64,000 nucleotides of DNA from Escherichia coli (GTDB lineage: Bacteria > Pseudomonadota > Gammaproteobacteria > Enterobacterales > Enterobacteriaceae), in the NCBI RefSeq assembly GCF_024223415.1, contig NZ_CP100500.1; one strand, written 5' to 3'. How positions within the stretch are numbered: the stretch's first letter is position 1; each line of letters starts with the position of its first letter. The notes below the pieces were generated by a model, which saw only the letters and a list, made by a program, of their open reading frames with translations, did no database searches and was not told where the DNA came from. The translations under genes were made by a program, and so were the position numbers. This document shows, piece by piece, positions 9,737 to 35,197 of the stretch.

Positions 9737-10953
9737 AGGTCGGCTTCTTTTTACTGAAATTTCCGCTGTCGTCGGAAACTTTCGTCCTCAACCAAATTAC
9801 CGCGTTTATTGATATGGGATTTGAGGTGGAGATTGTCGCGCTGCAAAAAGGCGATACAGAGAACACCCACGCGGCATGGACGAAATACAACCTTGCCGCC
9901 AGAACCCGCTGGTTACAGGACGAACCAACGGGCAAAGTGGCGAAGCTGCGCCACCGCGCCAGCCAGACCTTACGCGGCATTCATCGTAAAAATACCTGGC
10001 AGGCGCTCAACCTCAAACGCTATGGTGCCGAGTCGCGGAACCTGATTTTGTCTGCCATTTGCGGTCAGGTCGTAACACCGTTACATGCCGATGTCTTTAT
10101 CGCGCACTTTGGTCCGGCAGGGGTAACCGCAGCAAAACTCCGCGAACTGGGTGTCATTCGCGGCAAAATTGCCACCATTTTCCACGGCATTGATATTTCC
10201 AGTCGGGAAGTGCTCAACCACTACACTCCCGAATATCAACAACTGTTTCGCCGTGGCGACCTGATGCTACCGATAAGCGATCTGTGGGCCGGAAGGCTGC
10301 AAAAAATGGGCTGCCCGAGGGAAAAAATCGCCGTATCGCGCATGGGCGTGGACATGACGCGCTTTAGCCCGCGTCCGGTGAAAGCGCCTGCAACGCCGCT
10401 GGAAATCATTTCCGTCGCACGCTTAACCGAGAAAAAAGGCCTGCATGTGGCGATCGAAGCCTGCCGTCAGTTGAAAGAGCAGGGCGTGGCATTTCGCTAT
10501 CGCATCCTCGGCATTGGCCCGTGGGAACGACGCCTGCGCACCCTCATCGAACAATATCAACTGGAAGATGTGGTAGAGATGCCGGGCTTTAAACCGAGCC
10601 ACGAAGTGAAAGCGATCCTCGACGACGCGGATGTCTTCCTCCTGCCATCGGTAACGGGCGCGGATGGCGATATGGAAGGTATTCCGGTGGCGCTGATGGA
10701 GGCGATGGCGGTCGGCATTCCGGTGGTTTCTACTCTGCACAGCGGAATACCGGAACTGGTAGAGGCCGATAAATCCGGCTGGCTGGTGCCTGAGAACGAT
10801 TCTCGCGCACTGGCGCAACGACTGGCGGCGTTTAGCCAACTGGACACCGACGAACTGGCTCCGGTCGTCAAACGTGCGCGCGAAAAAGTTGAACACGATT
10901 TTAACCAGCAGGTGATCAATCGAGAACTCGTCAGCTTGCTGCAAGCTTTATAG
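9733..10953 (+). CDS. wcaL: colanic acid glycosyltransferase WcaL
   Basis: 406-aa GT family 1/4-like ORF; 4-nt overlap with wcaK. Confidence 0.85.
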
Positions 10954-10963
10954 AGGAGAACGC

Positions 10964-12358
10964 ATGCCATTTAAAAAACTCTCCCGACGCACCTTCCTGA
11001 CGGCAAGCTCCGCGCTTGCCTTCCTTCATACGCCTTTCGCCCGAGCACTTCCTGCCCGGCAAAGCGTTAACATTAACGACTACAACCCACACGACTGGAT
11101 TGCTTCATTTAAACAAGCCTTCAGCGAAGGGCAAACGGTCGTCGTGCCTGCCGGATTCGTTTGTGACAATATCAACACCGGCATCTTCATTCCTGCAGGT
11201 AAAACGTTACACATCCTTGGAAGCCTGCGCGGTAACGGCAGAGGGCGATTTGTCTTACAGGACGGCAGCCAGGTGACAGGGGAGGAGGGCGGCAGTATGC
11301 ATAACATCACCCTGGATGTGCGCGGCTCTGACTGCACCATCAAAGGGCTGGCGATGAGCGGCTTTGGTCCGGTAACGCAGATTTATATCGGCGGCAAAAA
11401 CAAACGGGTCATGCGCAACCTGACCATCGATAACCTCACTGTCAGCCACGCTAATTACGCCATCTTACGCCAGGGATTTCATAACCAGATTATCGCTGCC
11501 AACATCACCAACTGTAAGTTCAGCGACTTACAGGGCGACGCCATTGAATGGAATGTGGCGATTAACGACCGCGATATTTTGATATCCGACCACATCATCG
11601 AGCGCATCAACTGTACCAACGGCAAAATCAACTGGGGCATCGGCATAGGCCTTGCGGGAAGCACTTACGATAATAATTACCCGGAAGATCAGGCAGTGAA
11701 AAACTTTGTCGTGGCGAATATCACGGGATCGGATTGTCGACAGTTGATCCATGTTGAAAATGGTAAACATTTTGTTATTCGTAATATCAAAGCCCGCAAT
11801 ATCACGCCGGATTTCAGTAAGAAAGCAGGCATTGATAACGCCACGGTCGCTATTTACGGTTGTGACAATTTCGTGATTGATAATATTGAAATGATTAATA
11901 GCGCCGGGATGTTAATCGGCTATGGGGTAATTAAAGGCAAATATCTCTCGATACCGCAAAATTTCCGAGTGAGTAATATTCAACTGGATAATACCCACCT
12001 TGCTTACAAATTGCGCGGCATCCAAATCTCCGCCGGGAATGCCGTCTCCTTTGTGGCACTGACTAACATTGAGATGAAGCGTGCGTCGCTGGCGCTTCAC
12101 AATAAACCGCAACATCTTTTTATGCGAAATATCAATGTGATGCAGGAATCCACTGTTGGACCCGCACTGAGCATGAACTTCGACATGCGCAAAGACGTAC
12201 GAGGTGTCTTTATGGCGAAAAAAGAAACACTCCTGTCTCTTGCAAATGTTCATGCGGTGAATGAAAAAGGGCAAAGCTCCGTCGATATCGACAGGGTTAA
12301 TCACCATATTGTTAATGTGGAAAAGATTAACTTTAGATTGCCGGAACGGAGGGAGTAG
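10964..12358 (+). CDS. wcaM: colanic acid biosynthesis protein WcaM
   Basis: 464-aa ORF with signal-like N-terminus (Tat-like [13 protein letters not shown]); last gene of the wca cluster. Confidence 0.8.
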
Positions 12359-12532
12359 ATTTGCGACCATTCCTGGAAAAATGGATCCATACTTAGGAAC
12401 AATGCTACTGCAATCCACAACGAAGCGGCGTAACATCACAAGTAATTCAGTAATCAATTCAGGGTAATTGATGCTGGCGAAAAAAATCGAACAAGCTATA
12501 ATTCAGCAACCATTTTACAGGTGGATGAAATA

Positions 12533-13426
12533 ATGACGAATTTAAAAGCAGTTATTCCTGTAGCGGGTCTTGGGATGCATATGTTGCCTGCCACTAAGGC
12601 GATTCCCAAAGAGATGCTACCGATCGTCGACAAGCCTATGATTCAGTACATTGTTGACGAGATTGTGGCTGCAGGGATCAAAGAAATCCTCCTGGTAACT
12701 CATGCGTCCAAGAACGCGGTCGAAAACCACTTCGACACCTCTTATGAATTAGAATCTCTCCTTGAACAGCGCGTAAAGCGTCAATTGCTTGCGGAAGTGC
12801 AGTCCATCTGTCCACCGGGCGTGACCATTATGAACGTGCGTCAGGGCGAACCTTTAGGTTTGGGTCACTCCATTTTATGTGCACGACCCGCCATTGGTGA
12901 CAATCCATTTGTCGTGGTGCTGCCGGACGTTGTGATCGACGACGCCAGCGCCGACCCGCTGCGCTACAACCTTGCTGCCATGATTGCACGATTCAACGAA
13001 ACGGGTCGTAGCCAGGTGCTGGCAAAACGTATGCCGGGTGACCTCTCTGAATACTCGGTCATCCAGACCAAAGAACCACTGGACCGTGAAGGTAAAGTCA
13101 GCCGCATTGTTGAATTTATCGAAAAACCGGATCAGCCGCAGATGTTGGACTCAGACATCATGGCCGTTGGTCGTTATGTGCTTTCTGCCGATATTTGGCC
13201 GGAACTTGAACGCACGCAGCCAGGTGCATGGGGGCGTATTCAGCTGACTGATGCCATCGCTGAACTGGCGAAAACACAGTCCGTTGATGCCATGCTGATG
13301 ACAGGTGACAGCTACGACTGCGGTAAAAAAATGGGTTATATGCAGGCATTTGTGAAGTATGGACTACGCAACCTCAAAGAAGGGGCGAAGTTCCGTAAAG
13401 GGATTGAGAAGCTGTTAAGCGAATAA
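12533..13426 (+). CDS. galF: UTP-glucose-1-phosphate uridylyltransferase paralogue GalF
   Basis: ORF 12521..13426; start at [12 protein letters not shown] gives 297 aa; flanks the O-antigen locus as expected. Confidence 0.9.
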
Positions 13427-13699: not shown

Positions 13700-13722
13700 G
13701 TAAAGCCAGGGGCGGTAGCGTA
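13700..13722 (+). promoter_or_regulatory. JUMPstart/ops element (GGCGGTAGCGT) for RfaH-dependent antitermination
   Basis: Exact ops core GGCGGTAGCGT in the about 1 kb AT-rich galF to O-antigen intergenic region; coordinates approximate. Confidence 0.6.
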
Positions 13723-14450
13723 CATATGAGGAAACATTTCAGCTGAAATAATTGAATATTCCAAAGCATGAGAGTTACTTAATTTGTAAAAGTGCTACAG
13801 TACAATAGAGAGGATCTCTGTCTTCATATTGTTTGCGATCATCTCAGATGAAGTTATTGATTTCATCTTTTAATAGAAGAACTGAATAGAATATGTATGG
13901 CATTATCATTTTGAACAATAATAATAGAATAAAAGGAAGACATCGAAATGGTGGTCAAACATTACATCAGTTCTATTGATTTGACAGCAGAGAAGTCTGC
14001 CACAGCGAACCAAAATTACTGACTCGTAGAGAAGAAGTTGCACTGGCTGCTGAATGGTAATGGATGAAGACGACAGAGAAATAAGAAAAGAAAACTCAGC
14101 AGAATTACCTTCAGGGATATAGCGCATCACTATTTATGTATTGACTAAAGATAAAGCATTTAAGAAAGGTTAAGGTGTAAGGTGTGAAAAGCAGCCATGG
14201 GTAAGGTTCGTTTCGCACAGGCGTTACTTACAGTAGATGGTCGGCACATCGTAAGACTTGGTCTGATTGCCAGATCATATGTGAGACATCAGAAAAAATT
14301 TAAGCAAATATATAAACAGTAGGTGATGTTGTTAAAGTATAAAACAGATATGGTAGTCAAATAAAGCAAAGTATCGTTGGAAAAATATCTGTAAAATCCC
14401 TGGTGCGTTCACGTGAGTTAGAGTAAAAGTAATGAGGAGGTTCTATTTTT

Positions 14451-15551
14451 ATGAGTTTTGAAAATTGGTATATAAAAGATATTGAACCATATAAACTGGC
14501 TAGTCATAAAGTATGGGACGATGTTTGCAACCGAGATATATTAAAATTAGATTGGAATGAAGCAACTATTCCTGCTAGTCCGTATGTAAAGAAAAGAATT
14601 TTAGAAACTATTGATAAAATAGAGTTTAGATATTACCCAAACGTAAACAACATGGAGTTGTTAACAGCTATCGCGGGATATACTCAACTCAACATAGAAA
14701 ATATTCAATATTTTCCAAGTTCTGATGCTGCACATGAATATATAGCATCAGTATTCTTAACATCAGAAGATAGAGTGTTAATATTGTCCCCGACATATGA
14801 TAATTTCAGGCTAACCTGTCAAAGTAGAGGGGCGGAAATATCGTATGTTAATTGTTTTGATGGGGCGTTTCAATTCCAGAGTGAATTATTTATAAATGTT
14901 TTGAAAGAAACAAAGCCTAAAATTGCATATATGTGTAACCCTAACAATCCGACGGGTTCAATAATAAGGCGGGAATATATAAAGAAAATATTAACTCTTT
15001 TTCCTGATATCTTGTTTGTTTTAGATGAGGCTTATATTGAATTTTCATCTGGTTCATGTGGTGATTTTGTTAAGGAATATGATAATTTGATAGTATCAAG
15101 AACCTTCTCGAAGGCATTTGCGCTGGCCAATTTTAGGATTGGTTATATATTGGCTTCACCTAAACTTATAGTTTCAATTAATAAAATAAGAAATTCTAAG
15201 AATGTAACGACATTATCACAAGAGGCTGCAGTTGCTGCATTGCATGATTCTCAATATATGCAAGCTTATGTTAATGAGGTGATTGTAGCGCGACAATACT
15301 TTATTGAAGAGATAAATAGAAGGTTTGGAGATAAGCTGATAGCATATGAAAGTCATGGTAATTTTGTTCTTGTAAAATGCTCCTCGGAAATACTAAAAAA
15401 AACATTAATAAAAGGCCTGGAGGAACAAGATATTTTCATAAGAGATTTGTCACACAAGGAGCTCAATGGTTTACATATAAGGATTACTATTGGAACACGG
15501 ACTCAAATGAGGCAGGTGCTTAATGTTATTGAAAATATTATTGGTCAATAA
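14451..15551 (+). CDS. PLP-dependent aminotransferase (HisC-like class I/II)
   Basis: 366-aa ORF with histidinol-phosphate-aminotransferase-like features; first gene of the AT-rich O-antigen cluster. Confidence 0.75.
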   Translation: MSFENWYIKDIEPYKLASHKVWDDVCNRDILKLDWNEATIPASPYVKKRILETIDKIEFRYYPNVNNMELLTAIAGYTQLNIENIQYFPSSDAAHEYIASVFLTSEDRVLILSPTYDNFRLTCQSRGAEISYVNCFDGAFQFQSELFINVLKETKPKIAYMCNPNNPTGSIIRREYIKKILTLFPDILFVLDEAYIEFSSGSCGDFVKEYDNLIVSRTFSKAFALANFRIGYILASPKLIVSINKIRNSKNVTTLSQEAAVAALHDSQYMQAYVNEVIVARQYFIEEINRRFGDKLIAYESHGNFVLVKCSSEILKKTLIKGLEEQDIFIRDLSHKELNGLHIRITIGTRTQMRQVLNVIENIIGQ

Positions 15552-15587
15552 TATGTTTGCAGGCGCTCTTTATTATGTTGGTCAGCG

Positions 15588-16277
15588 ATGAAATATAAAT
15601 ACGCTTTTTTTGATTTTTGTGAAACGTTGGTGGATTTACAAACTGCTGATGATTACATTTCTGATGTGATTATTAAGAAGGAAGGCCGATGGAGTTATAA
15701 GCTTGCGATTATTGGCTTCTTAAGGAATAGATGGGTTAATAAATTATTTAATAAATTGTTTAACAATTATGATAACCCTAAGTCTTTGATTTTGAAGCTG
15801 GTTAAAGGGTTTGACTATGGGGTCTTTTCTGTTGCTGCAGAAGAATATTGTAAAAAACTAATGGAGTATTACTTAATTGATGATGTTATTTCGGAGATGC
15901 TAGAATTAAAAAAAAAGAATTATCAAATAATCATTGTCTCTGGGGGATATGATATATATATAAAGCATTTTTTTTCCTCAGTTGTAGATAAGGTTATAGC
16001 TACCGAGATTGATTTTTCTGATTCTAAGTGTCTGGGGAAAATATCAGGTATTGATTGTTTAGGTGTGAACAAGTTAAACAAAATAAAGAAATATATTGAT
16101 GTCAACACAATAGATTATGAAAATTCCTACGTCTTTTCTGACAGTAAAACAGATTTGCCTCTTTTTTCGTTAGCAAAGAATAAAATTGTCATATCTAAGA
16201 AAAAAAACAAATCGTGGGTTAATGAGCAAAATGAAGAATTTATTGAAAAAGTATGGTGTCCTAAAAAAATATGCTAA
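15588..16277 (+). CDS. HAD-family hydrolase/phosphatase
   Basis: 229-aa ORF with N-terminal HAD motif I (FFDFCETLVD) and size typical of HAD phosphatases. Confidence 0.6.
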   Translation: MKYKYAFFDFCETLVDLQTADDYISDVIIKKEGRWSYKLAIIGFLRNRWVNKLFNKLFNNYDNPKSLILKLVKGFDYGVFSVAAEEYCKKLMEYYLIDDVISEMLELKKKNYQIIIVSGGYDIYIKHFFSSVVDKVIATEIDFSDSKCLGKISGIDCLGVNKLNKIKKYIDVNTIDYENSYVFSDSKTDLPLFSLAKNKIVISKKKNKSWVNEQNEEFIEKVWCPKKIC

Positions 16278-17145
16278 GAAGTATTATTACTATACTTCTT
16301 CTTTTTTAATGTCAGATGAATTATATATAAAAAGGAAGTTTAAGAAAATTTTCGGATATGCTTTGGATATCAATAATCCAAAAACAATGAATGAAAAGAT
16401 GCAATGGATGAAGTTACATATGCATCCTCAGGAATATAATATTTTTGCAGATAAACTTCTTGTTAGAAAATACGTGGAAGAAAAGATTGGTAAAAATATA
16501 CTAATACCTATTTTTGCAGTATACGAAAGTGAAGCCGAATTAAATATAGATTCTTTGCCTGACGAACCATTTATCATTAAGACGAATCATGATAGTTCTG
16601 GTGGAATAATCGTGAGAAACAAATCAGAACTCAATATAAAGGATGCAAAAAGTTTTTGTCGATTTAATTTGAATAACAATCATTATTATATATCAAGAGA
16701 GAAACATTATAAACATTTAGACAGAAAAATTATTATAGAGAAGCTCCTTCTTACAAAATCCGGAAAAATCCCAAATGATTATAAAATAAATTGTATAAAT
16801 GGGCGTGCTGAATTTATATATTGCTCTATTGATAGAGAGGGGAAAAATTACCGAAAGATTTATGACAGGTCTTGGTGTGAAATGGATTTTAAATGGGGAA
16901 ATAAAGATGAGTTTGAGCATAAATTTACTGGGCCCAATATTGAAAAGCCTGATAATTTAGATAAAATGATTGAGTATGCGGAGATATTATCAATGGGGTT
17001 TCCTTATCTAAGAATAGATTTATACAATGTTGATGGGGAAATATATTTAGGAGAAATAACTATTTATCATGGGGGAGGGTTTGATGTTATTGAGCCAAAA
17101 GAATATGACTTATTTTTTGGTAATAAGATTCATTTAGAAAAATGA
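16222..17145 (+). CDS. TupA-like ATP-grasp protein (putative amidoligase)
   Basis: ORF 16186..17145 overlaps the previous gene; start probably at an internal Met (16222 or 16231); resembles the TupA-like ATP-grasp family found in polysaccharide clusters. Confidence 0.6.
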   Translation: MSKMKNLLKKYGVLKKYAKKYYYYTSSFLMSDELYIKRKFKKIFGYALDINNPKTMNEKMQWMKLHMHPQEYNIFADKLLVRKYVEEKIGKNILIPIFAVYESEAELNIDSLPDEPFIIKTNHDSSGGIIVRNKSELNIKDAKSFCRFNLNNNHYYISREKHYKHLDRKIIIEKLLLTKSGKIPNDYKINCINGRAEFIYCSIDREGKNYRKIYDRSWCEMDFKWGNKDEFEHKFTGPNIEKPDNLDKMIEYAEILSMGFPYLRIDLYNVDGEIYLGEITIYHGGGFDVIEPKEYDLFFGNKIHLEK

Positions 17146-18362
17146 AAAATATTATAAAGAATGGGCTGTCTCTTTCTTTTATAAAGGCAGTGACTTTGCT
17201 ATTTCCTATCGCCATTGTACCTATCCTGATATCAAAGATAGGAATGGATAAATATGGGGAAGTTGTATTTATCACTGCAATATATTCATATTTTATTAAT
17301 GTGGTTAGCTTTGGATTTGAAGAATCAGCCACTCAAGTCTTGGCAAAGAATCACTTCTCAGGTTTGTCGAAAAATGAATATATTTTGTCTGTTATCGTGC
17401 TCAAGGGCATAATTGCTGTTTCTATAATTTTTGTCATTTGTGGTTTGTATTTTTTGGGGATGGGAGGAGATTTTTTCTCATTGCTATTTTGTATTACCAT
17501 CGTCGCTGAGGTTTTTAATCCCTTATGGTTTTATCAGGGGGTCGAAAGAATTCATATTATCTCAGTGAGCTCTATAGTATCAAAATCATTATATACAATA
17601 TTAATATGTCTGTTTGTGAGATGTAATAATGATTATTACCTTGTTCCTGTATTTTTAGGCGGTGCGAATATTCTTTCTTATGTCTATCCGTTTGTTGCTA
17701 TGTGTAATGAGTGTAAATTTCGGCGCAATGACTTGAACTATAATAATTTGAAAAAAGTATTATTAGACTCAGTTAGTATATTCCTTACTAATTTTATCCC
17801 AACATTGAAAGATAAGATAGGTGCTATATTGATAGGTTTATCTTTCTCCATGAATATCGTAGCGATTTATGATATAATTATAAAAATACTTAATTTATTG
17901 TTTATTCCAGTAAATGTAATAAATGCATCGTTCTATCCAACACTTTCCAGGAAGAGAGAAAAGAAAATATTAATGCAATTAATGTATATAAATTTGGGTT
18001 ATGCTATTTTTGCATTTGTTATCGTATGTAATTTTTTTGATTATTTTTCCAATATCTACTTCCAATCCTATTCAGCGTATTCCGATGCTGTAAAAATAAT
18101 ATCTGTGTCTGTTGTTTTTTACTCAGTGAGTTTAATGATTGGAAAAAATATCCTATTGGTCACTGGTTTTTATCATCATGTGCTGCTCAGTATTATATTA
18201 TCGACAGGATTTTATTTGATGTTTGTCTGCTTTATGTATTCTCTTAGTTCATTGAGTATATATTCATTATGCTTTTTAACAACAGCATCATTCTTATTTG
18301 AAATGCTGGTTAGGTTAATTATGTTAAAGAAGACTAAGGCCTTGTTTTTTTTTAAATATTAA
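17142..18362 (+). CDS. wzx: O-antigen flippase
   Basis: 406-aa, very hydrophobic, about 12 predicted TM segments, AT-rich; 4-nt overlap with the upstream gene. Confidence 0.7.
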   Translation: MKNIIKNGLSLSFIKAVTLLFPIAIVPILISKIGMDKYGEVVFITAIYSYFINVVSFGFEESATQVLAKNHFSGLSKNEYILSVIVLKGIIAVSIIFVICGLYFLGMGGDFFSLLFCITIVAEVFNPLWFYQGVERIHIISVSSIVSKSLYTILICLFVRCNNDYYLVPVFLGGANILSYVYPFVAMCNECKFRRNDLNYNNLKKVLLDSVSIFLTNFIPTLKDKIGAILIGLSFSMNIVAIYDIIIKILNLLFIPVNVINASFYPTLSRKREKKILMQLMYINLGYAIFAFVIVCNFFDYFSNIYFQSYSAYSDAVKIISVSVVFYSVSLMIGKNILLVTGFYHHVLLSIILSTGFYLMFVCFMYSLSSLSIYSLCFLTTASFLFEMLVRLIMLKKTKALFFFKY

Positions 18363-18376
18363 TTAGGTATGGAAGT

Positions 18377-19246
18377 ATGAAAACAGTGTCAGTAATCATT
18401 CCAACATATAGGGATTGGGAAAGATTATCTAAATGTTTAAATGCAATAAAAAAACAAAGATATCCCGCAGAGTTTATTCAGGTAATAGTCATTAATAATG
18501 ATCCATTTGATGATAATCCATTTATAAATAGTGATGAATATAAAAATGTAAAGTTTTTAGTAGAGGGAAAGGTGGGTTCTTATGCAGCAAGAAATAAAGG
18601 CCTAAATTATGCAAAAGGGGAGATTATAGCATTCACTGATTCAGATTGTGTCCCAGATGAGTTTTGGATTTCAAATGCTGTTCGACATTTTGAAGAAAAT
18701 AGTAAATGCACAAGAATTGGTGGGAAAATTGAATTATTTTTCAAAGGTAATGTAAGTAAAACCCTAGCTGAATTTTATGAACAAAGTTATGCTTTCCGGC
18801 AGAAAGAGTTTGTTCAACGACAGGGAATGGCTGCAACAGCTAATATGTTCTCATATAAGAAGGTTTTTGATGATATATCATATTTCAATGATTCATTGAT
18901 GTCGGGAGGAGATGCCGAATGGGGAGTTAGGGCAAATAATAAAGGATATAGAATAGACTATTGTGATTCTGTCACTGTTTATCATCCGGCAAGAGAATCG
19001 ATGAAACAAATTTTTATAAAAAATCGAAGGGAAGCCAGTGGTAAAATAAAAAATAAACGAAAAGTGTTAATCAATTTTGTAATGTCATTGCTCCCACCAT
19101 TAAAATCGTTGATGTATATTAGGTATCATGGGAATAGTATATATAAAGTATTAATTGCATTTTTTATTAGATATTTAATGAGGATTGATACGGCTATAGA
19201 ACAAATCCGGGTTGTGTTTTTTAATAAGAAAGCCGAGCGATTATGA
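18377..19246 (+). CDS. glycosyltransferase family 2
   Basis: N-terminal GT2 signature (VSVIIPTYRDWERLSKCLNAI) and DxD (TDSDC). Confidence 0.75.
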   Translation: MKTVSVIIPTYRDWERLSKCLNAIKKQRYPAEFIQVIVINNDPFDDNPFINSDEYKNVKFLVEGKVGSYAARNKGLNYAKGEIIAFTDSDCVPDEFWISNAVRHFEENSKCTRIGGKIELFFKGNVSKTLAEFYEQSYAFRQKEFVQRQGMAATANMFSYKKVFDDISYFNDSLMSGGDAEWGVRANNKGYRIDYCDSVTVYHPARESMKQIFIKNRREASGKIKNKRKVLINFVMSLLPPLKSLMYIRYHGNSIYKVLIAFFIRYLMRIDTAIEQIRVVFFNKKAERL

Positions 19247-20487
19247 AAATGTTTTTTTTTGTTCTTTGCGTGTTCTTTTTAATAAATGGCTTTTATATAT
19301 ATCCGCCATTTAATAGTGCAATTTTAGCACCGATGTTAGCTTTATTGGGAGCACTAACATTAAGGAAGAAAATAACGATAAAGCCCTTTTCTGACTTGTT
19401 AGATCCTTCATTTTTATTTTGGTTTCTTTTTGTAAGTTGTTATTGTCTATCAATTGCAGTTTTCTCAAAAACATATGACTTATCATATGTAAAGAACTTT
19501 ATATCACAACTTGTTCAATTTGCTATTATTTTATTTAGTTTTTTTATGTTATCATCAATAGATGGAGCATTTTCTCTTAAGATAGAAAAAATTATCGTAT
19601 ATAGCTTCGTTTTACAATCTGTTATTCAGATAGCAGCATTTCTATATCCTGGAATAGCCGATATTATTCATTTATTTTATGATAAAGATAAAGTAGAGCG
19701 ATTATACATCAATTACGCAGGAGTAAGAGGACTGGCGTTGACTGGTTCCCCAGGGTGGGGAATATCTGTTGGATATGCTATATCATTTTTACTTTTTGTT
19801 AAAGCATTTGTTATTAATCAGAAATTGAAGTTTTCTAGTATTATAGTTGCAATACTACTTTTAATCGGTGCAATGTTTACTGGTCGCAGTGCTTTTATTG
19901 GTGTTATTTTCGGTGGGGGGTATTATCTTGTATCAGGAGAGGATATTACAAAAAAAATCAAAACTATAATTCTATTTTTAATTCTTCCTGCATTAATATG
20001 CATGTTAACATATATAATGTTGCCATCCCTATCCTCACTATTCGGAGATAAGGTTTTCCCATTTGTCTTTGAGTTCTATTATAAATACAAAGACACAGGT
20101 GAGTTATCTACTAAATCTACAGATATTTTGTTGAATATGTGGGATCTTAACGTTGATGTTACTGACATTGTGTTCGGTACAGGTAATTTCACAAATGACA
20201 AAACTGGAGAGTATTATTTCGGTAGTGATGTGGGATATCTCCGGAATTTATTGTATGGTGGTTTTTTTTGGATGTTCACTCTTTTTATTTATCAGGTTTC
20301 ATTATTTGGACAACTGCGTTGGTGGAAAAAAAGAAAGGATATTAAATTATTTGTATTCATTTTTATAGCCATGTTAATGTTGCTTGAGATGAAAGCAATG
20401 GCCATAGGATATAATAAATATGTGTTTACAGTTTCTATTTTATTAGGATTGTCATTTAAAGAGAGATACAGAAATGCTTACCAATAA
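19243..20487 (+). CDS. wzy: O-antigen polymerase
   Basis: 414-aa polytopic membrane protein with a large loop, extremely AT-rich; typical Wzy profile. Confidence 0.6.
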   Translation: MKMFFFVLCVFFLINGFYIYPPFNSAILAPMLALLGALTLRKKITIKPFSDLLDPSFLFWFLFVSCYCLSIAVFSKTYDLSYVKNFISQLVQFAIILFSFFMLSSIDGAFSLKIEKIIVYSFVLQSVIQIAAFLYPGIADIIHLFYDKDKVERLYINYAGVRGLALTGSPGWGISVGYAISFLLFVKAFVINQKLKFSSIIVAILLLIGAMFTGRSAFIGVIFGGGYYLVSGEDITKKIKTIILFLILPALICMLTYIMLPSLSSLFGDKVFPFVFEFYYKYKDTGELSTKSTDILLNMWDLNVDVTDIVFGTGNFTNDKTGEYYFGSDVGYLRNLLYGGFFWMFTLFIYQVSLFGQLRWWKKRKDIKLFVFIFIAMLMLLEMKAMAIGYNKYVFTVSILLGLSFKERYRNAYQ

Positions 20488-21385
20488 AGTCTCTGTTGTT
20501 ATTCCGACACATAGTCGGCCTAATCTTTTGCGAAAAGCTATAGAAAGTGTTTTGAATCAGACATATAAGCCATGTGAAATTATTGTTGTTGATGATACAG
20601 AATCTGAAGAAACCGCTCGATGTTTATCTGTCATAAATAGCGATATACCTATTAGGCTAAAGTATAACACTTCTTCTGGTGCCGGCTCGTCTAGGAATTT
20701 AGGTGCAAAGATTGCTAATGGTGATTTTGTGGCTTTCTTGGATGACGATGATCTCTGGCTTCCAACTAAATTAGAAACGCAGATGTATGAATTGCGGCAT
20801 ACACAATATGATGCAATTTTTTGTCAGATGATAATAAATTATGAAGGGGTAAACATACAATATTCTACTCGAGCCAAAAATGTAGCTGAACCATTAAAAG
20901 AAATATGTATTGAAAACTTTATTGGTGCCACAATATCCTGTGTTATACGCCGTTCAATTTTTATGAAATTAGGAGGGTTTGATGAAAGATTCAAGGCTAG
21001 AGAGGAATATGATTTATGGATTCGAGTTATTCAATCTAATGCTAAAATTAAAATAATAGAAAAACCATTAACTATTTCAAATCGTTCTTTTGTACGGAAT
21101 CGTATTTCTTCTAACATAAATAATTATGAGCACGGAATATCACTTATTAACGAAAAATATGCTCGATTGATTACTGAAATATTAACTCCCAATGAGAGAA
21201 GAATAAGATTATCGAAACAATATGAATTTCTAGCTGCTCAGGCAATATCTTTAGGCCTTAAAATGACAAGCTCAAAGTATTATTTTAAGTCTTTTTTAAC
21301 AATTCCTTCTCTTAAATCGTTATTTCTTTCATTGTTGAGTATTATTTCTCCGCTAATGATAATAAAAATTAGAAGCAAACTTTAA
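20474..21385 (+). CDS. glycosyltransferase family 2
   Basis: N-terminal GT2 signature (VSVVIPTHSRPNLLRKAIESV) and DDDD motif. Confidence 0.75.
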   Translation: MLTNKVSVVIPTHSRPNLLRKAIESVLNQTYKPCEIIVVDDTESEETARCLSVINSDIPIRLKYNTSSGAGSSRNLGAKIANGDFVAFLDDDDLWLPTKLETQMYELRHTQYDAIFCQMIINYEGVNIQYSTRAKNVAEPLKEICIENFIGATISCVIRRSIFMKLGGFDERFKAREEYDLWIRVIQSNAKIKIIEKPLTISNRSFVRNRISSNINNYEHGISLINEKYARLITEILTPNERRIRLSKQYEFLAAQAISLGLKMTSSKYYFKSFLTIPSLKSLFLSLLSIISPLMIIKIRSKL

Positions 21386-21427
21386 TTATATCATCATTAT
21401 TAGACAGTCAATAACTGTGGAGTTAAC

Positions 21428-22690
21428 ATGAGTTCTGGGTTTAATTCTATTGAAAAGAACTTTTCAAGATTTTTATCTTACTTTCCAGGGATAAAAAAAA
21501 TAATTAAAAAAGCTTACATAAGGATAAATTTTTATATCTACAAAAAAGAACATAAAGTAAAAAGTGATTACAGCATCCATACGATTGATATCGATAGTTG
21601 CGAAACTTTTTTTGGATACTATGATAAATGTCCCGATAATGGTAAAGGAGATGTTATCGTTTGTGCATCGACTATATCTACCCACAACATACCTGATCCA
21701 AACAATCCGATTAAATTATATGTGTACAATCTTTGTACTAAAGATAAGGTGTTCATTGCTAATATTTCTGCATATAATTGGCAACAAGGATGTCGTGCTC
21801 ATTGGCTAAACGATGATTTACTTATTTATAACTTTTACTCTCATGAAAAGCGTAATTATTCGTCGAAAATATACTCAATCATAGAGAAAAAACATATAGC
21901 AGAGTTCTCTTTTGCGGTACAAGACAGTTTTCTTGGTAATTATTTTTTATCTATAAACTATTCTCGCTTAATGGCGTTACGCCCAGATTATGGATATAGA
22001 AATAAAAGTTTTTCTTGGGAATTGTTTGATCTGGCTAATGATGGTATATGGAAAGTCGATATTAGCTCTCGTAAGGGAGAATTAATCGTTACATTTTGTG
22101 ATATTATTAATTTTGAGTTTGAAAATAATGATGAGTATAAACATAAAGTTAACCATGTAATGATTTCTCCCGATGGTGAAAAATTTATATTTATACATCG
22201 TTATTATTATAAAGGTAAACGGAATGATAGATTAATGTTGTCAACCAAAGACGGACATTTAATTTCAGTATTAGCTAATAATAAAATGGTTAGTCATTGT
22301 TGTTGGCTTTCCAATGATAAAATTATCGGTTATTTAAGATCTGATAGTGGTGATGATAGTTATTGGGTTATTGATATAAATAATCTGGAGTCATACCAAC
22401 TCTTAGATGGTGAATTACTAAAATATGGCGATGGTCATCCATCGAATTGTAAAAATCTATTAGTGACGGATACATATCCTAATAAGTCAAGATATCAGAA
22501 ATTATTATTAGTCGATATGGATAATGATAATTACCAGGAACTTGGTGAGTTTTTACATGATCTTAGTTTTTCTGATGAGACTAGATGTGACTTACATCCT
22601 CGCTTTTCTCATGATGGCAGCATGATTTTTTTTGATTCAGTTTTTTCTGGAAAACGCAAGTTATGCTATTTACAGTTAATTAATAAATAA
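21428..22690 (+). CDS. hypothetical protein, beta-propeller-like C-terminus, inside the O-antigen cluster
   Basis: 420-aa ORF with no recognisable GT motif; C-terminal repeats (HPRFSHDGSMIFFDS) resemble TolB/oligogalacturonate-lyase-type propeller blades. Confidence 0.5.
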   Translation: MSSGFNSIEKNFSRFLSYFPGIKKIIKKAYIRINFYIYKKEHKVKSDYSIHTIDIDSCETFFGYYDKCPDNGKGDVIVCASTISTHNIPDPNNPIKLYVYNLCTKDKVFIANISAYNWQQGCRAHWLNDDLLIYNFYSHEKRNYSSKIYSIIEKKHIAEFSFAVQDSFLGNYFLSINYSRLMALRPDYGYRNKSFSWELFDLANDGIWKVDISSRKGELIVTFCDIINFEFENNDEYKHKVNHVMISPDGEKFIFIHRYYYKGKRNDRLMLSTKDGHLISVLANNKMVSHCCWLSNDKIIGYLRSDSGDDSYWVIDINNLESYQLLDGELLKYGDGHPSNCKNLLVTDTYPNKSRYQKLLLVDMDNDNYQELGEFLHDLSFSDETRCDLHPRFSHDGSMIFFDSVFSGKRKLCYLQLINK

Positions 22691-22695
22691 AGTGA

Positions 22696-23511
22696 TTGTA
22701 TATGAAAGTCGCAGTCGCAATGTCTGTATATAAGAATGATAATCCTATATACTTAGAGAAAGCCATTAAAAGTATATTGAATCAAACATATAAAAATATC
22801 CATTTATATATAGAGGTCGATGGAGTCATATCTCCACAATTATATCAATGTTTATCCTCTTTTATCTCATGCTCAAATATTAGTATAAATTTTAATAGTG
22901 ATTGTAAAGGATTGGCATTTAGATTAAATAATATTATTGATAAGGTTATATTTGATGGAGGATATTCGTATATTGCAAGAATGGATGCTGATGATATATC
23001 TCGACTCGATAGGATTGAAAAACAAGTAATATTTATGCAGACCCATAAGGATATTTCTGTTGTTGGTTCTGATGTTCTAGAAATAGATGAGGATGATAAT
23101 TTTTTATTTTACAAAAAAATGCATTGTGATCATGAGATCATCGTTCGAGATATTATTAAGAAATGTCCAATAAATCATCCCTCAGCATTTTTTAAAATAT
23201 CTTCATTTTATATAGTTAGATATAATTCCACCTTGAAGAACACACAGGATTATTACTTGTGGATTGATTTTATTTATAATAATTTAAAGATCTCAAACAT
23301 CAATGAGCCTTTGTTAAAATTTAGAGTGAATAGAGATTTTTATTCACGGAGAGGGTTTGATAAAGCTATCAATGATGTAAAATCACGAATATATGCCTTG
23401 CGAAAGTTGAATTGCTATTCACTAAGGAATATATTTCATATATTAATGCTTTTTTTTCTTAGAGTATCTCCGACTGTAATAAAAAAAATTGCATACAATA
23501 GACTTAGATAA
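22696..23511 (+). CDS. glycosyltransferase family 2
   Basis: GT2 signature (VAVAMSVYKNDNPIYLEKAIKSILNQTY) and DADD motif; last gene before gnd. Confidence 0.7.
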   Translation: MYMKVAVAMSVYKNDNPIYLEKAIKSILNQTYKNIHLYIEVDGVISPQLYQCLSSFISCSNISINFNSDCKGLAFRLNNIIDKVIFDGGYSYIARMDADDISRLDRIEKQVIFMQTHKDISVVGSDVLEIDEDDNFLFYKKMHCDHEIIVRDIIKKCPINHPSAFFKISSFYIVRYNSTLKNTQDYYLWIDFIYNNLKISNINEPLLKFRVNRDFYSRRGFDKAINDVKSRIYALRKLNCYSLRNIFHILMLFFLRVSPTVIKKIAYNRLR

Positions 23512-23698
23512 ACTTCATCTACCACGCTATAGTCGGTAAGTGGTCTTCGTTTTTCTTAAAAAAGAAGCAACGTGACATATTTTTCTTTGTTACAGAAATA
23601 TTAAGATATCCATTATCATTTTTTCACATTTGATAAAACTTATCTTATATATCCAATTACATATATATATTGCGATAGAGTCTTGACAGGAGTAAACA

Positions 23699-25105
23699 AT
23701 GTTAAAGCAACAGATAGGTGTTGTCGGTATGGCAGTGATGGGGCGCAACCTTGCGCTCAATATAGAAAGCTGTGGTTATACCGTCTCTATTTTCAACCGT
23801 TCCCGTGAAAAGACGGAAGAAGTGATTGCCGAAAATCCAGGCAAGAAACTGGTGCCTTACTACACGGTTAAAGAGTTTGTTGAATCTCTGGAAACGCCTC
23901 GTCGCATCCTGTTAATGGTGAAAGCAGGTGCAGGCACGGATGCTGCTATTGATTCCCTAAAACCATACCTCGATAAGGGCGACATCATCATTGATGGTGG
24001 TAACACCTTCTTCCAGGACACAATTCGTCGTAACCGTGAGCTTTCTGCCGAAGGCTTTAACTTCATTGGTACCGGAGTTTCCGGCGGTGAAGAAGGTGCG
24101 CTGAAAGGTCCTTCTATTATGCCCGGTGGCCAGAAAGAAGCCTATGAACTGGTTGCGCCGATCCTGACCAAGATCGCCGCAGTAGCTGAAGACGGTGAGC
24201 CATGCGTTACCTACATTGGTACCGATGGCGCAGGCCACTATGTGAAGATGGTTCACAACGGTATTGAATACGGCGATATGCAGCTGATTGCTGAAGCCTA
24301 TTCGCTGCTTAAAGGTGGCCTGAACCTCACCAACGAAGAACTGGCGCAGACCTTTACCGAGTGGAATAACGGTGAACTGAGTAGCTACCTGATCGACATC
24401 ACCAAAGATATCTTTACTAAAAAAGATGAAGACGGTAACTACCTGGTTGATGTGATTCTGGATGAAGCGGCTAACAAAGGTACCGGTAAATGGACCAGCC
24501 AGAGCGCGCTGGATCTCGGCGAACCGCTGTCGCTGATTACCGAGTCTGTGTTTGCACGTTATATCTCTTCTCTGAAAGATCAGCGCGTTGCCGCATCTAA
24601 AGTTCTCTCTGGCCCGCAAGCACAGCCAGATGGCGACAAGGCTGAGTTCATCGAAAAAGTTCGTCGTGCTCTATATCTGGGCAAAATCGTTTCTTACGCC
24701 CAAGGCTTCTCTCAGCTGCGTGCTGCGTCTGAAGAGTACAACTGGGATCTGAACTACGGCGAAATCGCGAAGATTTTCCGTGCTGGTTGCATCATTCGTG
24801 CGCAGTTCCTTCAGAAAATCACTGATGCATATGCCGAAAATCCGAAGATCGCTAACTTGCTACTGGCTCCGTACTTTAAACAAATTGCCGATGATTATCA
24901 GCAGGCGCTGCGTGATGTCGTTGCTTATGCAGTGCAGAACGGTATCCCGGTTCCTACCTTTGCTGCTGCGGTTGCCTATTACGACAGCTACCGTGCTGCT
25001 GTTCTGCCTGCGAACTTGATCCAGGCGCAGCGTGACTATTTTGGTGCACATACTTATAAGCGCATTGATAAAGCAGGTGTCTTCCATACCGAATGGCTGG
25101 ATTAA
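23699..25105 (+). CDS. gnd: 6-phosphogluconate dehydrogenase, decarboxylating
   Basis: 468-aa ORF recognised as Gnd ([19 protein letters not shown]-binding motif); core GC content. Confidence 0.95.
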
Positions 25106-25349: not shown

Positions 25350-26516
25350 ATGAAAATAACAATTTCAGGAACAGGTTATGTTGGTCTTTCAAATGGTATT
25401 CTGATTGCGCAAAACCACGAAGTGGTTGCACTGGATATCGTTCAGGCCAAAGTGGACATGCTTAACAAGAAGCAGTCACCGATTGTTGATAAGGAGATTG
25501 AAGAGTATCTGGCGACTAAAGATCTCAATTTCCGCGCTACGACAGATAAGTATGACGCGTATAAAAATGCCGATTACGTTATTATTGCCACGCCTACCGA
25601 TTATGATCCGAAAACGAATTATTTTAATACCTCAAGCGTGGAAACGGTCATTCGCGATGTGACAGAAATTAATCCCAGCGCGGTAATGATTATAAAATCA
25701 ACTATCCCTGTTGGTTTTACAGAGTCTATTAAAGAACGGTTTGGTATTGAAAATGTGATTTTTTCGCCGGAGTTTTTACGCGAAGGGAAAGCACTTTATG
25801 ATAACTTGCATCCATCACGCATAGTGATTGGCGAGCAATCTGACCGCGCAGAACGTTTTGCAGCGTTATTACAGGAAGGCGCTATTAAGCAAGACATACC
25901 AATATTGTTTACTGACTCAACCGAGGCTGAGGCGATTAAACTTTTTGCCAATACTTATCTGGCGATGCGTGTGGCTTATTTTAATGAACTAGATACTTAC
26001 GCTGAAAGTCTGGGTCTTAACTCCCGCCAAATTATTGAGGGAGTTTGCCTTGATCCGCGTATCGGTAATCACTACAATAATCCGTCATTTGGTTATGGTG
26101 GTTATTGTCTGCCGAAAGATACTAAGCAGTTACTGGCAAACTATCAGTCAGTACCGAATAACTTGATCTCAGCAATTGTCGATGCCAATCGCACGCGAAA
26201 AGATTTTATTGCCGATTCTATCCTTGCACGTAAACCGAAAGTTGTTGGCGTCTATCGTCTGATTATGAAGAGTGGTTCGGACAATTTCCGTGCTTCCTCA
26301 ATTCAGGGTATTATGAAGCGAATCAAGGCGAAAGGCGTGCCTGTAATCGTTTATGAGCCAGCTATGAAAGAGGACAATTTTTTCAGGTCGCGCGTGGTAC
26401 GTGATCTGGATGCGTTCAAGCAAGAAGCTGATGTTATTATTTCTAACCGTATGTCTGCCGATCTGGCTGATGTAGCAGATAAGGTTTATACGCGCGACTT
26501 GTTTGGCAATGATTAA
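25350..26516 (+). CDS. ugd: UDP-glucose 6-dehydrogenase
   Basis: ORF 25323..26516; start at [16 protein letters not shown] gives 388 aa. Confidence 0.9.
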
Positions 26517-26581: not shown

Positions 26582-27586
26582 TCAAACTTTATAGAAGTTA
26601 CGATACCATTCTACAAAGTTCTTTACCCCCTCTTTAACTGACGTTTCAGGTTTGAATCCTATTACGTCATACAGTGCTTTGGTATCAGCACTGGTTTCCA
26701 GTACATCACCGGGTTGGAGAGGCATCATATTTTTGTTGGCTTCAATACCCAGAGCCTCTTCTAACGCATTGATATAGTCCATCAACTCTACAGGCGAACT
26801 ATTACCAATGTTATAGACACGATATGGTGCTGAACTTGTTGCAGGCGAGCCTGTTTCTACAGCCCACTGTGGATCTTTTTCTGGAATAACATCCTGTAAG
26901 CGAATAATAGCTTCGGCAATATCATCAATATAAGTAAAGTCACGCTTCATTTTGCCGAAGTTGTAAACATCAATGCTTTTACCTTCCAACATGGCTTTAG
27001 TAAATTTAAATAATGCCATATCCGGACGTCCCCATGGACCATAAACCGTAAAGAAACGCAGTCCTGTGGTCGGTAAGCCATACAAATGAGAATATGTATG
27101 GGCCATGAGTTCATTCGCTTTTTTAGTTGCTGCATAAAGTGAAACAGGATGATCTACAGAGTCATCTGTAGAGAAAGGCATCATGCGGTTCATACCATAA
27201 ACAGAACTGGAGGAAGCGTAAAGTAGATGCTGAACATTATTATGGCGGCATCCTTCCAGTATGTTCAGGAATCCAATCAGGTTTGCATCTGCATATGCAT
27301 TGGGATTTTCAAGGGAGTAACGTACACCGGCTTGCGCAGCGAGGTTTATTACGCGATCGAACCGCTCCTCTGCAAACAGTGCTGCCATTTTCTCACGATC
27401 GGCCAGGTCAATTTTATAAAAACTGAAATTGTCGTGCTTGAGTAAATCAAGTCGTGCTTGTTTGAGGTTGACATCGTAATAATCATTTAAGTTGTCAATG
27501 CCTACAACCTGATGACCAGCTGCAAGAAGCCGTTTACTTACATAGAAACCGATAAAGCCAGCAGCTCCCGTAACCAGAAATTTCAT
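26582..27586 (-). CDS. gla: NAD-dependent epimerase, UDP-glucuronate 4-epimerase-like
   Basis: 334-aa ORF with Rossmann motif ([12 protein letters not shown]) and YxxxK; sits between ugd and wzzB on the opposite strand. Confidence 0.75.

Positions 27587-32826: not shown

Positions 32827-35197
<2,371 letters not shown>

Follow-up and report, generated by a model that had tools for sequence, protein, structure and literature searches.

Which chemical group do the three genes that open a low-G+C O-antigen cluster of Escherichia coli attach to the polysaccharide? These genes (positions 14451 to 17145) lie in a 64-kb stretch of contig NZ_CP100500.1 (RefSeq assembly GCF_024223415.1), which was analyzed as a whole and is referred to here as the window. 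A preliminary description of the same DNA had read them as a HisC-like aminotransferase, a HAD phosphatase and a TupA-like ATP-grasp protein, and had proposed that they amidate a hexuronic acid in the manner of Campylobacter jejuni capsule synthesis. Our analysis revealed that the three genes are intact and co-oriented, with families and coordinates as described, and that they comprise a Cj1437-like aminotransferase with its pyridoxal phosphate (PLP) lysine, a Cj1435-like HAD protein and a ligase like the C-terminal domain of Cj1438 (Cj1438C), adjacent to one another in a polysaccharide locus with a supply of uridine diphosphate (UDP)-uronates. Considering these homologies, we regard it as probable (roughly three chances in four) that the three genes form a serinol-amidation cassette for a uronic acid-containing O-antigen, equivalent to Cj1437, Cj1438C and Cj1435.

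The enzymes that amidate the HS:2 and HS:19 capsules of C. jejuni were characterized by the Raushel laboratory (PMC11800397, PMC13276843). In that pathway, (S)-serinol phosphate arises from dihydroxyacetone phosphate by transamination (Cj1437) and ethanolamine phosphate from serine phosphate by decarboxylation (Cj1436). Cj1438C forms an ATP-dependent amide at the C6 carboxylate of glucuronic acid (GlcA) once this sugar is in the chain, taking ethanolamine phosphate as well as serinol phosphate, and Cj1435 takes off the phosphate (PMC11800397). For comparison, the sequences of Cj1438C and Cj1435 were obtained from the supplement of PMC11800397, and those of Cj1437 and Cj1436 from two C. jejuni contigs carrying the four genes adjacent to one another; the supplement sequences differ from the contigs by a few residues, and the comparison redone against the contigs gave the same numbers. 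A G10 homopolymer shifts the Cj1437 frame in both contigs (L008, ∼2313 to 2323; L007, ∼2430 to 2440), and the frames were rejoined across this tract before comparison. The tract suggests that serinol amidation is switched by phase variation in C. jejuni, while runs of G or C in the E. coli aminotransferase gene stay below 7 bases, with no poly-G phase-variation tract.

The aminotransferase (14451 to 15551, plus strand; 366 amino acids [aa]) was found to be 45% identical to Cj1437 over 356 aa (272 bits), compared with 28% identity (110 bits) to the strain's own HisC and 25% (69 bits) to Cj1436. The PLP lysine (K221; motif SKAFALA) is found in each of eight orthologues. Although its best matches among solved structures are histidinol-phosphate aminotransferases (E = 9e-40), the score against the NCBIfam hisC model TIGR01141 was 270.3 bits, under the cut-off of 276.55, placing the protein outside HisC as defined by that model. 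Likewise, the score against the CobD model was 157.6 bits, far under the cut-off of 290.55, so that the protein does not qualify as a decarboxylase of the Cj1436/CobD type. From these similarities, the enzyme is predicted to convert dihydroxyacetone phosphate and glutamate to (S)-serinol phosphate. Moreover, no Cj1436-like decarboxylase gene was detected in the window, where the sole match to Cj1436 was the aminotransferase itself. Since the aminotransferase is of the Cj1437 type and no decarboxylase of the Cj1436 type accompanies it in the window, serinol is favored over ethanolamine as the amine. The preliminary description had predicted 2-amino-1,3-propanediol (serinol) or a related amine, and this prediction is refined to serinol.

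The HAD-IB phosphatase (15588 to 16277, plus strand; 229 aa) is 29% identical to Cj1435 over the full length (E = 9e-23) and scored 64.7 bits against TIGR01488 (cut-off, 45). The two proteins have in common the DFCET motif I, VSGG, K and SD...D, with S118, K162, D185 and D189 among the aligned positions (alignment A1). In DFCET of both proteins, the second aspartate normally present, Asp+2 (general acid/base), is exchanged for a cysteine, and the same cysteine was observed in three other relatives with the N terminus covered in the alignment. The phosphatase is predicted by homology to strip the phosphate from the serinol-phosphate amide. A search with this protein, limited in sensitivity, returned no other E. 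coli or Shigella relatives.

The open reading frame of the ATP-grasp protein starts at 16186 or 16231, and the ATG chosen by RefSeq is 16231, giving a protein of 304 aa (16231 to 17145, plus strand). It matches Pfam PF14305 (ATPgrasp_TupA; E = 3e-47) over model positions 1 to 240 of 241 and is 29% identical to Cj1438C (Cj1438 residues 453 to 776) over 280 aa (E = 3e-36). Among eight ligase sequences, 38 columns are invariant, including the KTNHD and R-x-D-x-Y...GE-x-T-x-x-HG motifs; no solved structure was matched in a sequence search with this protein. The ligase is thus placed in the same ATP-grasp family as TupA of Bacillus (teichuronopeptide), the founding member of PF14305, and is predicted to amidate a hexuronic acid at its C6 carboxylate with serinol phosphate. 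The TupA family is tied to amide-linked decoration of uronic acid polymers, and TupA itself to a glutamate-containing polymer of the Gram-positive wall; Bacillus TupA is not known to have an aminotransferase or HAD partner.

Each of the three proteins is therefore a full-length homologue of a characterized enzyme (45%, 29% and 29% identity for aminotransferase, phosphatase and ligase), which bears out the C. jejuni-type enzyme set that had been proposed. In both organisms, the genes are adjacent and lie within a surface-polysaccharide locus using UDP-GlcA, and the DFCET form of HAD motif I is found in both. Nevertheless, several differences were observed between the two systems. The ligase is a free-standing protein in E. 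coli but the C-terminal domain of a multidomain glycosyltransferase in C. jejuni, and the gene order is aminotransferase-HAD-ligase in the former versus ligase-aminotransferase-(decarboxylase)-HAD in the latter. In addition, C. jejuni has the Cj1436 decarboxylase that the E. coli window lacks, and the polysaccharide is a Wzx/Wzy-dependent O-antigen in E. coli versus an ABC-transporter capsule in C. jejuni. Unlike in C. jejuni, a gla gene near the E. coli cluster suggests galacturonic acid (GalA) as a possible acceptor.

The source of the uronic acid lies 1.8 to 3.1 kb downstream of the cluster, just past gnd, as the preliminary description had noted. The first gene is ugd (25350 to 26516, plus strand), annotated in RefSeq as a UDP-glucose 6-dehydrogenase, which supplies UDP-GlcA, and the second encodes a gla-type, UDP-glucuronate 4-epimerase-like short-chain dehydrogenase/reductase (26582 to 27586, minus strand), which is predicted to supply UDP-GalA. 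The gla gene was present in 292 of the 5426 complete E. coli genomes, mostly at 95 to 99% identity, and is therefore accessory. Solved relatives of its product include the Bacillus cereus entries 6zl6/6zla, titled in the PDB as an epimerase-domain protein, which we take to be a UDP-GlcA 4-epimerase. The closest solved structure is 5u4q (632 bits), deposited as a dTDP-glucose 4,6-dehydratase, a name that is probably a misnomer. Given the accessory status of gla in E. coli and its UDP-GlcA 4-epimerase relatives, GalA is likely to be part of the O-unit.

Further support came from the distribution of the cassette in other organisms. The closest ligase homologue outside E. coli (68% identity) was found in Photobacterium damselae, in which one locus (GCA_041894575.1, L003) matches the E. 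coli cluster gene for gene, with nine counterparts in unchanged order (43 to 68% amino acid identity) and with ugd (76%), a gla-type epimerase gene (73%) and galU directly after them. This locus is placed after wzc and a WecA-like initiating transferase, whereas the E. coli cluster lies between galF and gnd; likewise, ugd and gla are co-oriented within the P. damselae cluster but located beyond gnd in E. coli, with gla on the minus strand. The presence of both genes inside the syntenic cluster strengthens the link to uronic acid made previously. Judging from this synteny, the repeat unit specified by the P. damselae locus is probably identical or closely similar to that of the E. coli cluster, and no structure or function reported for it was found in the literature. 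This gene order recurs in one metagenome locus, where ugd closely precedes the genes, and a Shewanella locus is arranged similarly with the aminotransferase relocated. The order aminotransferase-HAD-ATP-grasp is kept in P. damselae, two metagenome loci, Vibrio parahaemolyticus and Parabacteroides. Because other genera have homologues (41 to 68% amino acid identity) arranged in this order, the three open reading frames represent real genes rather than chance ones.

The cassette also occurs apart from the rest of the cluster, namely, in a different, capsule-type locus of V. parahaemolyticus, in a wzi-adjacent locus (L006) and in a Parabacteroides capsule locus, so that it is kept as a unit in many polysaccharide loci. 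These gene arrangements indicate that the cassette is a mobile unit, which in the closest relatives travels with genes for UDP-GlcA and UDP-GalA. Two of the loci have features of their own. L006, which lies near wzi and core-region-like genes, carries two TupA-like ATP-grasp genes (10001 to 10891, and 12249 to 13130 on the minus strand) with a single aminotransferase-HAD pair, and the second ligase hints that some family members may use other amines or acceptors. In Parabacteroides (L010, 4543 to 6895), the cassette directly follows a pyruvyl transferase and its Fer4/FrhB-type partner, and one possibility is that the group amidated there is the carboxylate of a pyruvate ketal instead of a uronic acid.

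Based on these comparisons, the following route can be proposed for the E. coli O-antigen. The aminotransferase would form (S)-serinol phosphate from dihydroxyacetone phosphate, a glycolytic intermediate, with glutamate as the amino donor. The ATP-grasp ligase would then activate the C6 carboxylate of GlcA or GalA, provided by ugd and the accessory gla as UDP-GlcA and UDP-GalA, respectively, with ATP via an acyl-phosphate and couple it to the amine of serinol phosphate, after which the HAD phosphatase would cleave the phosphate ester to leave a neutral 2-amino-1,3-propanediol amide. Since the ligase needs ATP, amidation and dephosphorylation would be cytoplasmic and precede flipping by Wzx. 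By analogy with C. jejuni, we infer that amidation acts on an undecaprenyl diphosphate-linked oligosaccharide at the cytoplasmic face, with the sugar already added, rather than on the UDP-sugar. No sugar-nucleotide synthesis genes were found within the cluster, so the O-unit would be assembled from housekeeping UDP-sugars, and the three GT2 glycosyltransferases encoded there, with WecA as initiator, point to a tetrasaccharide. Its building blocks would be UDP-GlcNAc, UDP-Glc or UDP-Gal, and UDP-GlcA or UDP-GalA. The substrates, the order of the steps, the identity of the amidated uronic acid (GlcA or GalA) and the size of the O-unit are predictions of this route.

Several points weigh against the serinol cassette. 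A serinol amide in this O-antigen is a prediction from the genes, and the Cj1437 and Cj1436 types share one superfamily, in which 45% identity is no proof of the same substrate. The ligase and phosphatase, at 29% identity, could have room for an amine or acceptor specificity different from that of the C. jejuni enzymes. Because E. coli carries ugd at this site as part of its housekeeping set, the proximity of this gene alone is no evidence for a uronic acid in the O-unit. In addition, the second TupA-like gene of L006 and the pyruvyl transferase neighbor in Parabacteroides suggest that the family may amidate other carboxylates.

The alternative that best withstands these data is that the cassette installs another small amine, either an amino-alcohol derived from a different keto-phosphate or phosphoserine/serine, resembling the amino acid amides of E. 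coli O46, O110, O134 and O167. Amino acid amides of GlcA and GalA are indeed commoner among E. coli O-antigens (PMC7685785), the nearest solved relatives of the phosphatase are phosphoserine phosphatases, and the ligase shares merely 29% identity with Cj1438C. However, the aminotransferase is much nearer to Cj1437 than to any other comparator tested, free amino acids would require no dedicated transaminase or phosphatase, and the make-up of the cassette is exactly that of the serinol route, which leaves another amine rather unlikely. An amide with ethanolamine, formed from ethanolamine phosphate as in the alternative decoration of C. jejuni HS:2, would suit a ligase of the Cj1438C kind, which accepts both phosphorylated amines (PMC11800397), but it needs a Cj1436 activity, for which the 25% identical aminotransferase is the only candidate in the window, and we consider it very improbable. 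It is scarcely credible that the aminotransferase and phosphatase represent surplus copies of histidine-pathway enzymes (HisC and a histidinol-phosphatase-like protein) or amino-sugar enzymes beside an unrelated ATP-grasp protein, with no uronic acid amidated: the TIGR01141 score (270 bits) is 6 bits short of the cut-off, the HAD protein gives weak histidinol-phosphatase family matches and some sources label the aminotransferase a histidinol-phosphate transaminase, but the genuine hisC, 28% identical, is located elsewhere in the window, within the his operon (∼32841 to 33869), the three genes travel together within polysaccharide loci in several phyla, and the aminotransferase is a HisC-like class I/II enzyme (PF00155) and not of the DegT type used for amino sugars, for which reason an amino-sugar role was rejected.

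With serinol amidation as the preferred explanation, the remainder of the locus can be described as that of a Wzx/Wzy-dependent O-antigen. The window contains, in order, colanic acid genes, galF (12521 to 13426), the O-antigen cluster (14451 to 23511), gnd, ugd, the gla-type epimerase gene on the minus strand, wzz and the his operon. The G+C content is 0.29 to 0.35 across 14 to 24 kb (∼30% in the cluster) versus 0.47 to 0.56 in the flanks. An ops/JUMPstart element, GGCGGTAGCGT (13711 to 13721, plus strand), is the sole exact match in the window and lies between galF and the first cluster gene. Downstream of it, at the 5' junction of the cluster, a degenerate remnant of an ISAs1-family (H-repeat/ISEc1) transposase gene was identified (13730 to 14200; strand not assigned). 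Thousands of E. coli genomes contain annotated ISAs1/ISEc1 transposase genes that it resembles at ∼76% DNA identity, and the full 721-base stretch was present in just two genomes. This remnant, within the 730 bases between ops and the first gene, is consistent with lateral acquisition of the cluster, which is of probable Vibrionaceae origin.

A GAGGAGG Shine-Dalgarno sequence precedes the aminotransferase gene, and the genes of the cluster abut or overlap one another. The ATP-grasp open reading frame begins before the HAD gene has ended, and wzx likewise shares bases with the stop codon of the ATP-grasp gene, an arrangement typical of a single operon. The six genes downstream of the cassette, all on the plus strand, encode the Wzx flippase (17142 to 18362; RefSeq annotation; 43% identity to the P. 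damselae counterpart), a GT2 glycosyltransferase (18377 to 19246; NCBIfam GT2-type matches; 56%), the Wzy O-unit polymerase (19243 to 20487; RefSeq annotation and a weak TIGR04370 match; 50%), a second GT2 glycosyltransferase (20474 to 21385; NCBIfam matches; 61%), a conserved 420-aa protein without a Pfam match (21428 to 22690) and a third GT2 glycosyltransferase (22702 to 23511; RefSeq and NCBIfam; 56%).

The 420-aa protein, which had neither a Pfam match nor a sequence match in the PDB, belongs to a family of ∼2400 representative sequences, nearly all of ∼420 aa. It is predicted to be a 7-bladed beta-propeller most like the oligogalacturonate lyase (Ogl) of family PL22. A profile-versus-PDB search with the family gave a weak match (E = 0.7 to 1), in whose alignment the family-invariant RCDLHP stands opposite R..THPHP of Ogl, with one histidine kept and one replaced by aspartate; the latter region presumably holds the Mn-binding His/Gln ligands of Ogl. 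Among the loci compared, this protein occurs only in the syntenic clusters and not beside the cassette elsewhere, indicating that it is a component specific to this repeat unit and lies outside the amidation module. The genomic context of two distant family members provided nothing informative. A uronate-directed activity of the protein is plausible. It is conceivable, though we consider it doubtful, that the cluster specifies an undescribed O-antigen from a Vibrionaceae-like donor in which the uronic acid is amidated with serinol and further processed by the 420-aa protein in the cytoplasm, e.g., as a C5-epimerase or another C5-proton-abstracting enzyme acting on the lipid-linked oligosaccharide to yield L-altruronic or L-iduronic acid.

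To describe the rarity of this O-type, positions 14000 to 24000 were compared with other genomes. Results revealed 100% identity in strain Combat11I9 (human urine, Hong Kong) and 99.7% identity in strain 181.1 (turkey, Canada), and these two were the only carriers of the cluster among the 5426 complete E. coli genomes. A sensitive DNA search, though limited in its own sensitivity, detected no diverged copy of the cassette in the other complete E. coli genomes; homologues in O143 may have escaped both this search and the protein search with the phosphatase. The cluster proteins were recorded on ∼130 to 170 contigs in public assemblies, indicating that the type is rare but not unique. In strain 181.1 (L002, 6589 to 13670), most cluster genes are annotated as split (HAD, wzx, wzy, glycosyltransferase and the 420-aa protein) despite the 99.7% identity, which reflects sequencing errors in homopolymers or else decay of the cluster to a rough type.

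The preliminary description had also suggested a match to a known serogroup with serinol-amidated GalA. Such a decoration, GalA amidated with 2-amino-1,3-propanediol, was reportedly found in the O-antigen of E. coli O143 and Shigella boydii type 8 by Landersjo et al. in 1996. It would be an equivalent decoration within one species, and the O143 O-unit contains both GlcA and GalA. However, gne, a UDP-GlcNAc 4-epimerase gene serving GalNAc, and a glycosyltransferase in excess of the expected number are part of the O143 cluster (PMC7685785), whereas no epimerase gene is present between galF and gnd in the cluster studied here. Moreover, one paper lists Combat11I9, which has the identical cluster, as O-:H28, meaning that no O type was called in silico. 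The absence of gne and the lack of an in silico type for the carrier make O143 unlikely, the two being set apart by the published description of the O143 cluster, and the suggested match was abandoned. UniProt entries exist for the cluster proteins (A0A076G3Q0, A0A076G513 and A0A076G3Q5), and this accession series suggests a GenBank deposit of ∼2014. OX18 (KJ710507), which has a unique OX cluster and a 2014 accession and of which OX18:H28 isolates exist, was considered but not adopted because it would be a guess. No published structure for this O-type was found in the literature.

The mechanism discussed here is already known from the C. jejuni enzymes, and the advance is thus incremental; what is new is the occurrence of a free-standing cassette in a rare, structurally uncharacterized Wzx/Wzy-dependent O-antigen of E. 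coli. For this untyped O-type, carried by one human urinary and one turkey isolate, the analysis provides a testable structure prediction, namely, a tetrasaccharide of housekeeping UDP-sugars with serinol-amidated GlcA or GalA. If the 420-aa protein indeed acts at C5, its function would define that of a Pfam-less family of ∼2400 sequences, as a new class of polysaccharide-biosynthesis enzyme. The free-standing and probably soluble versions of the ligase are on offer for glyco-engineering, and annotators could use the cassette as a predictor of serinol-amide decorations. More broadly, the amidation enzymes of C. jejuni appear as part of a mobile three-gene cassette that extends across Gammaproteobacteria, Campylobacterota and Bacteroidota. 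The serinol amide that it is predicted to install would remove negative charge from the surface polysaccharide, a change that can alter antigenicity and possibly recognition by phages or complement.

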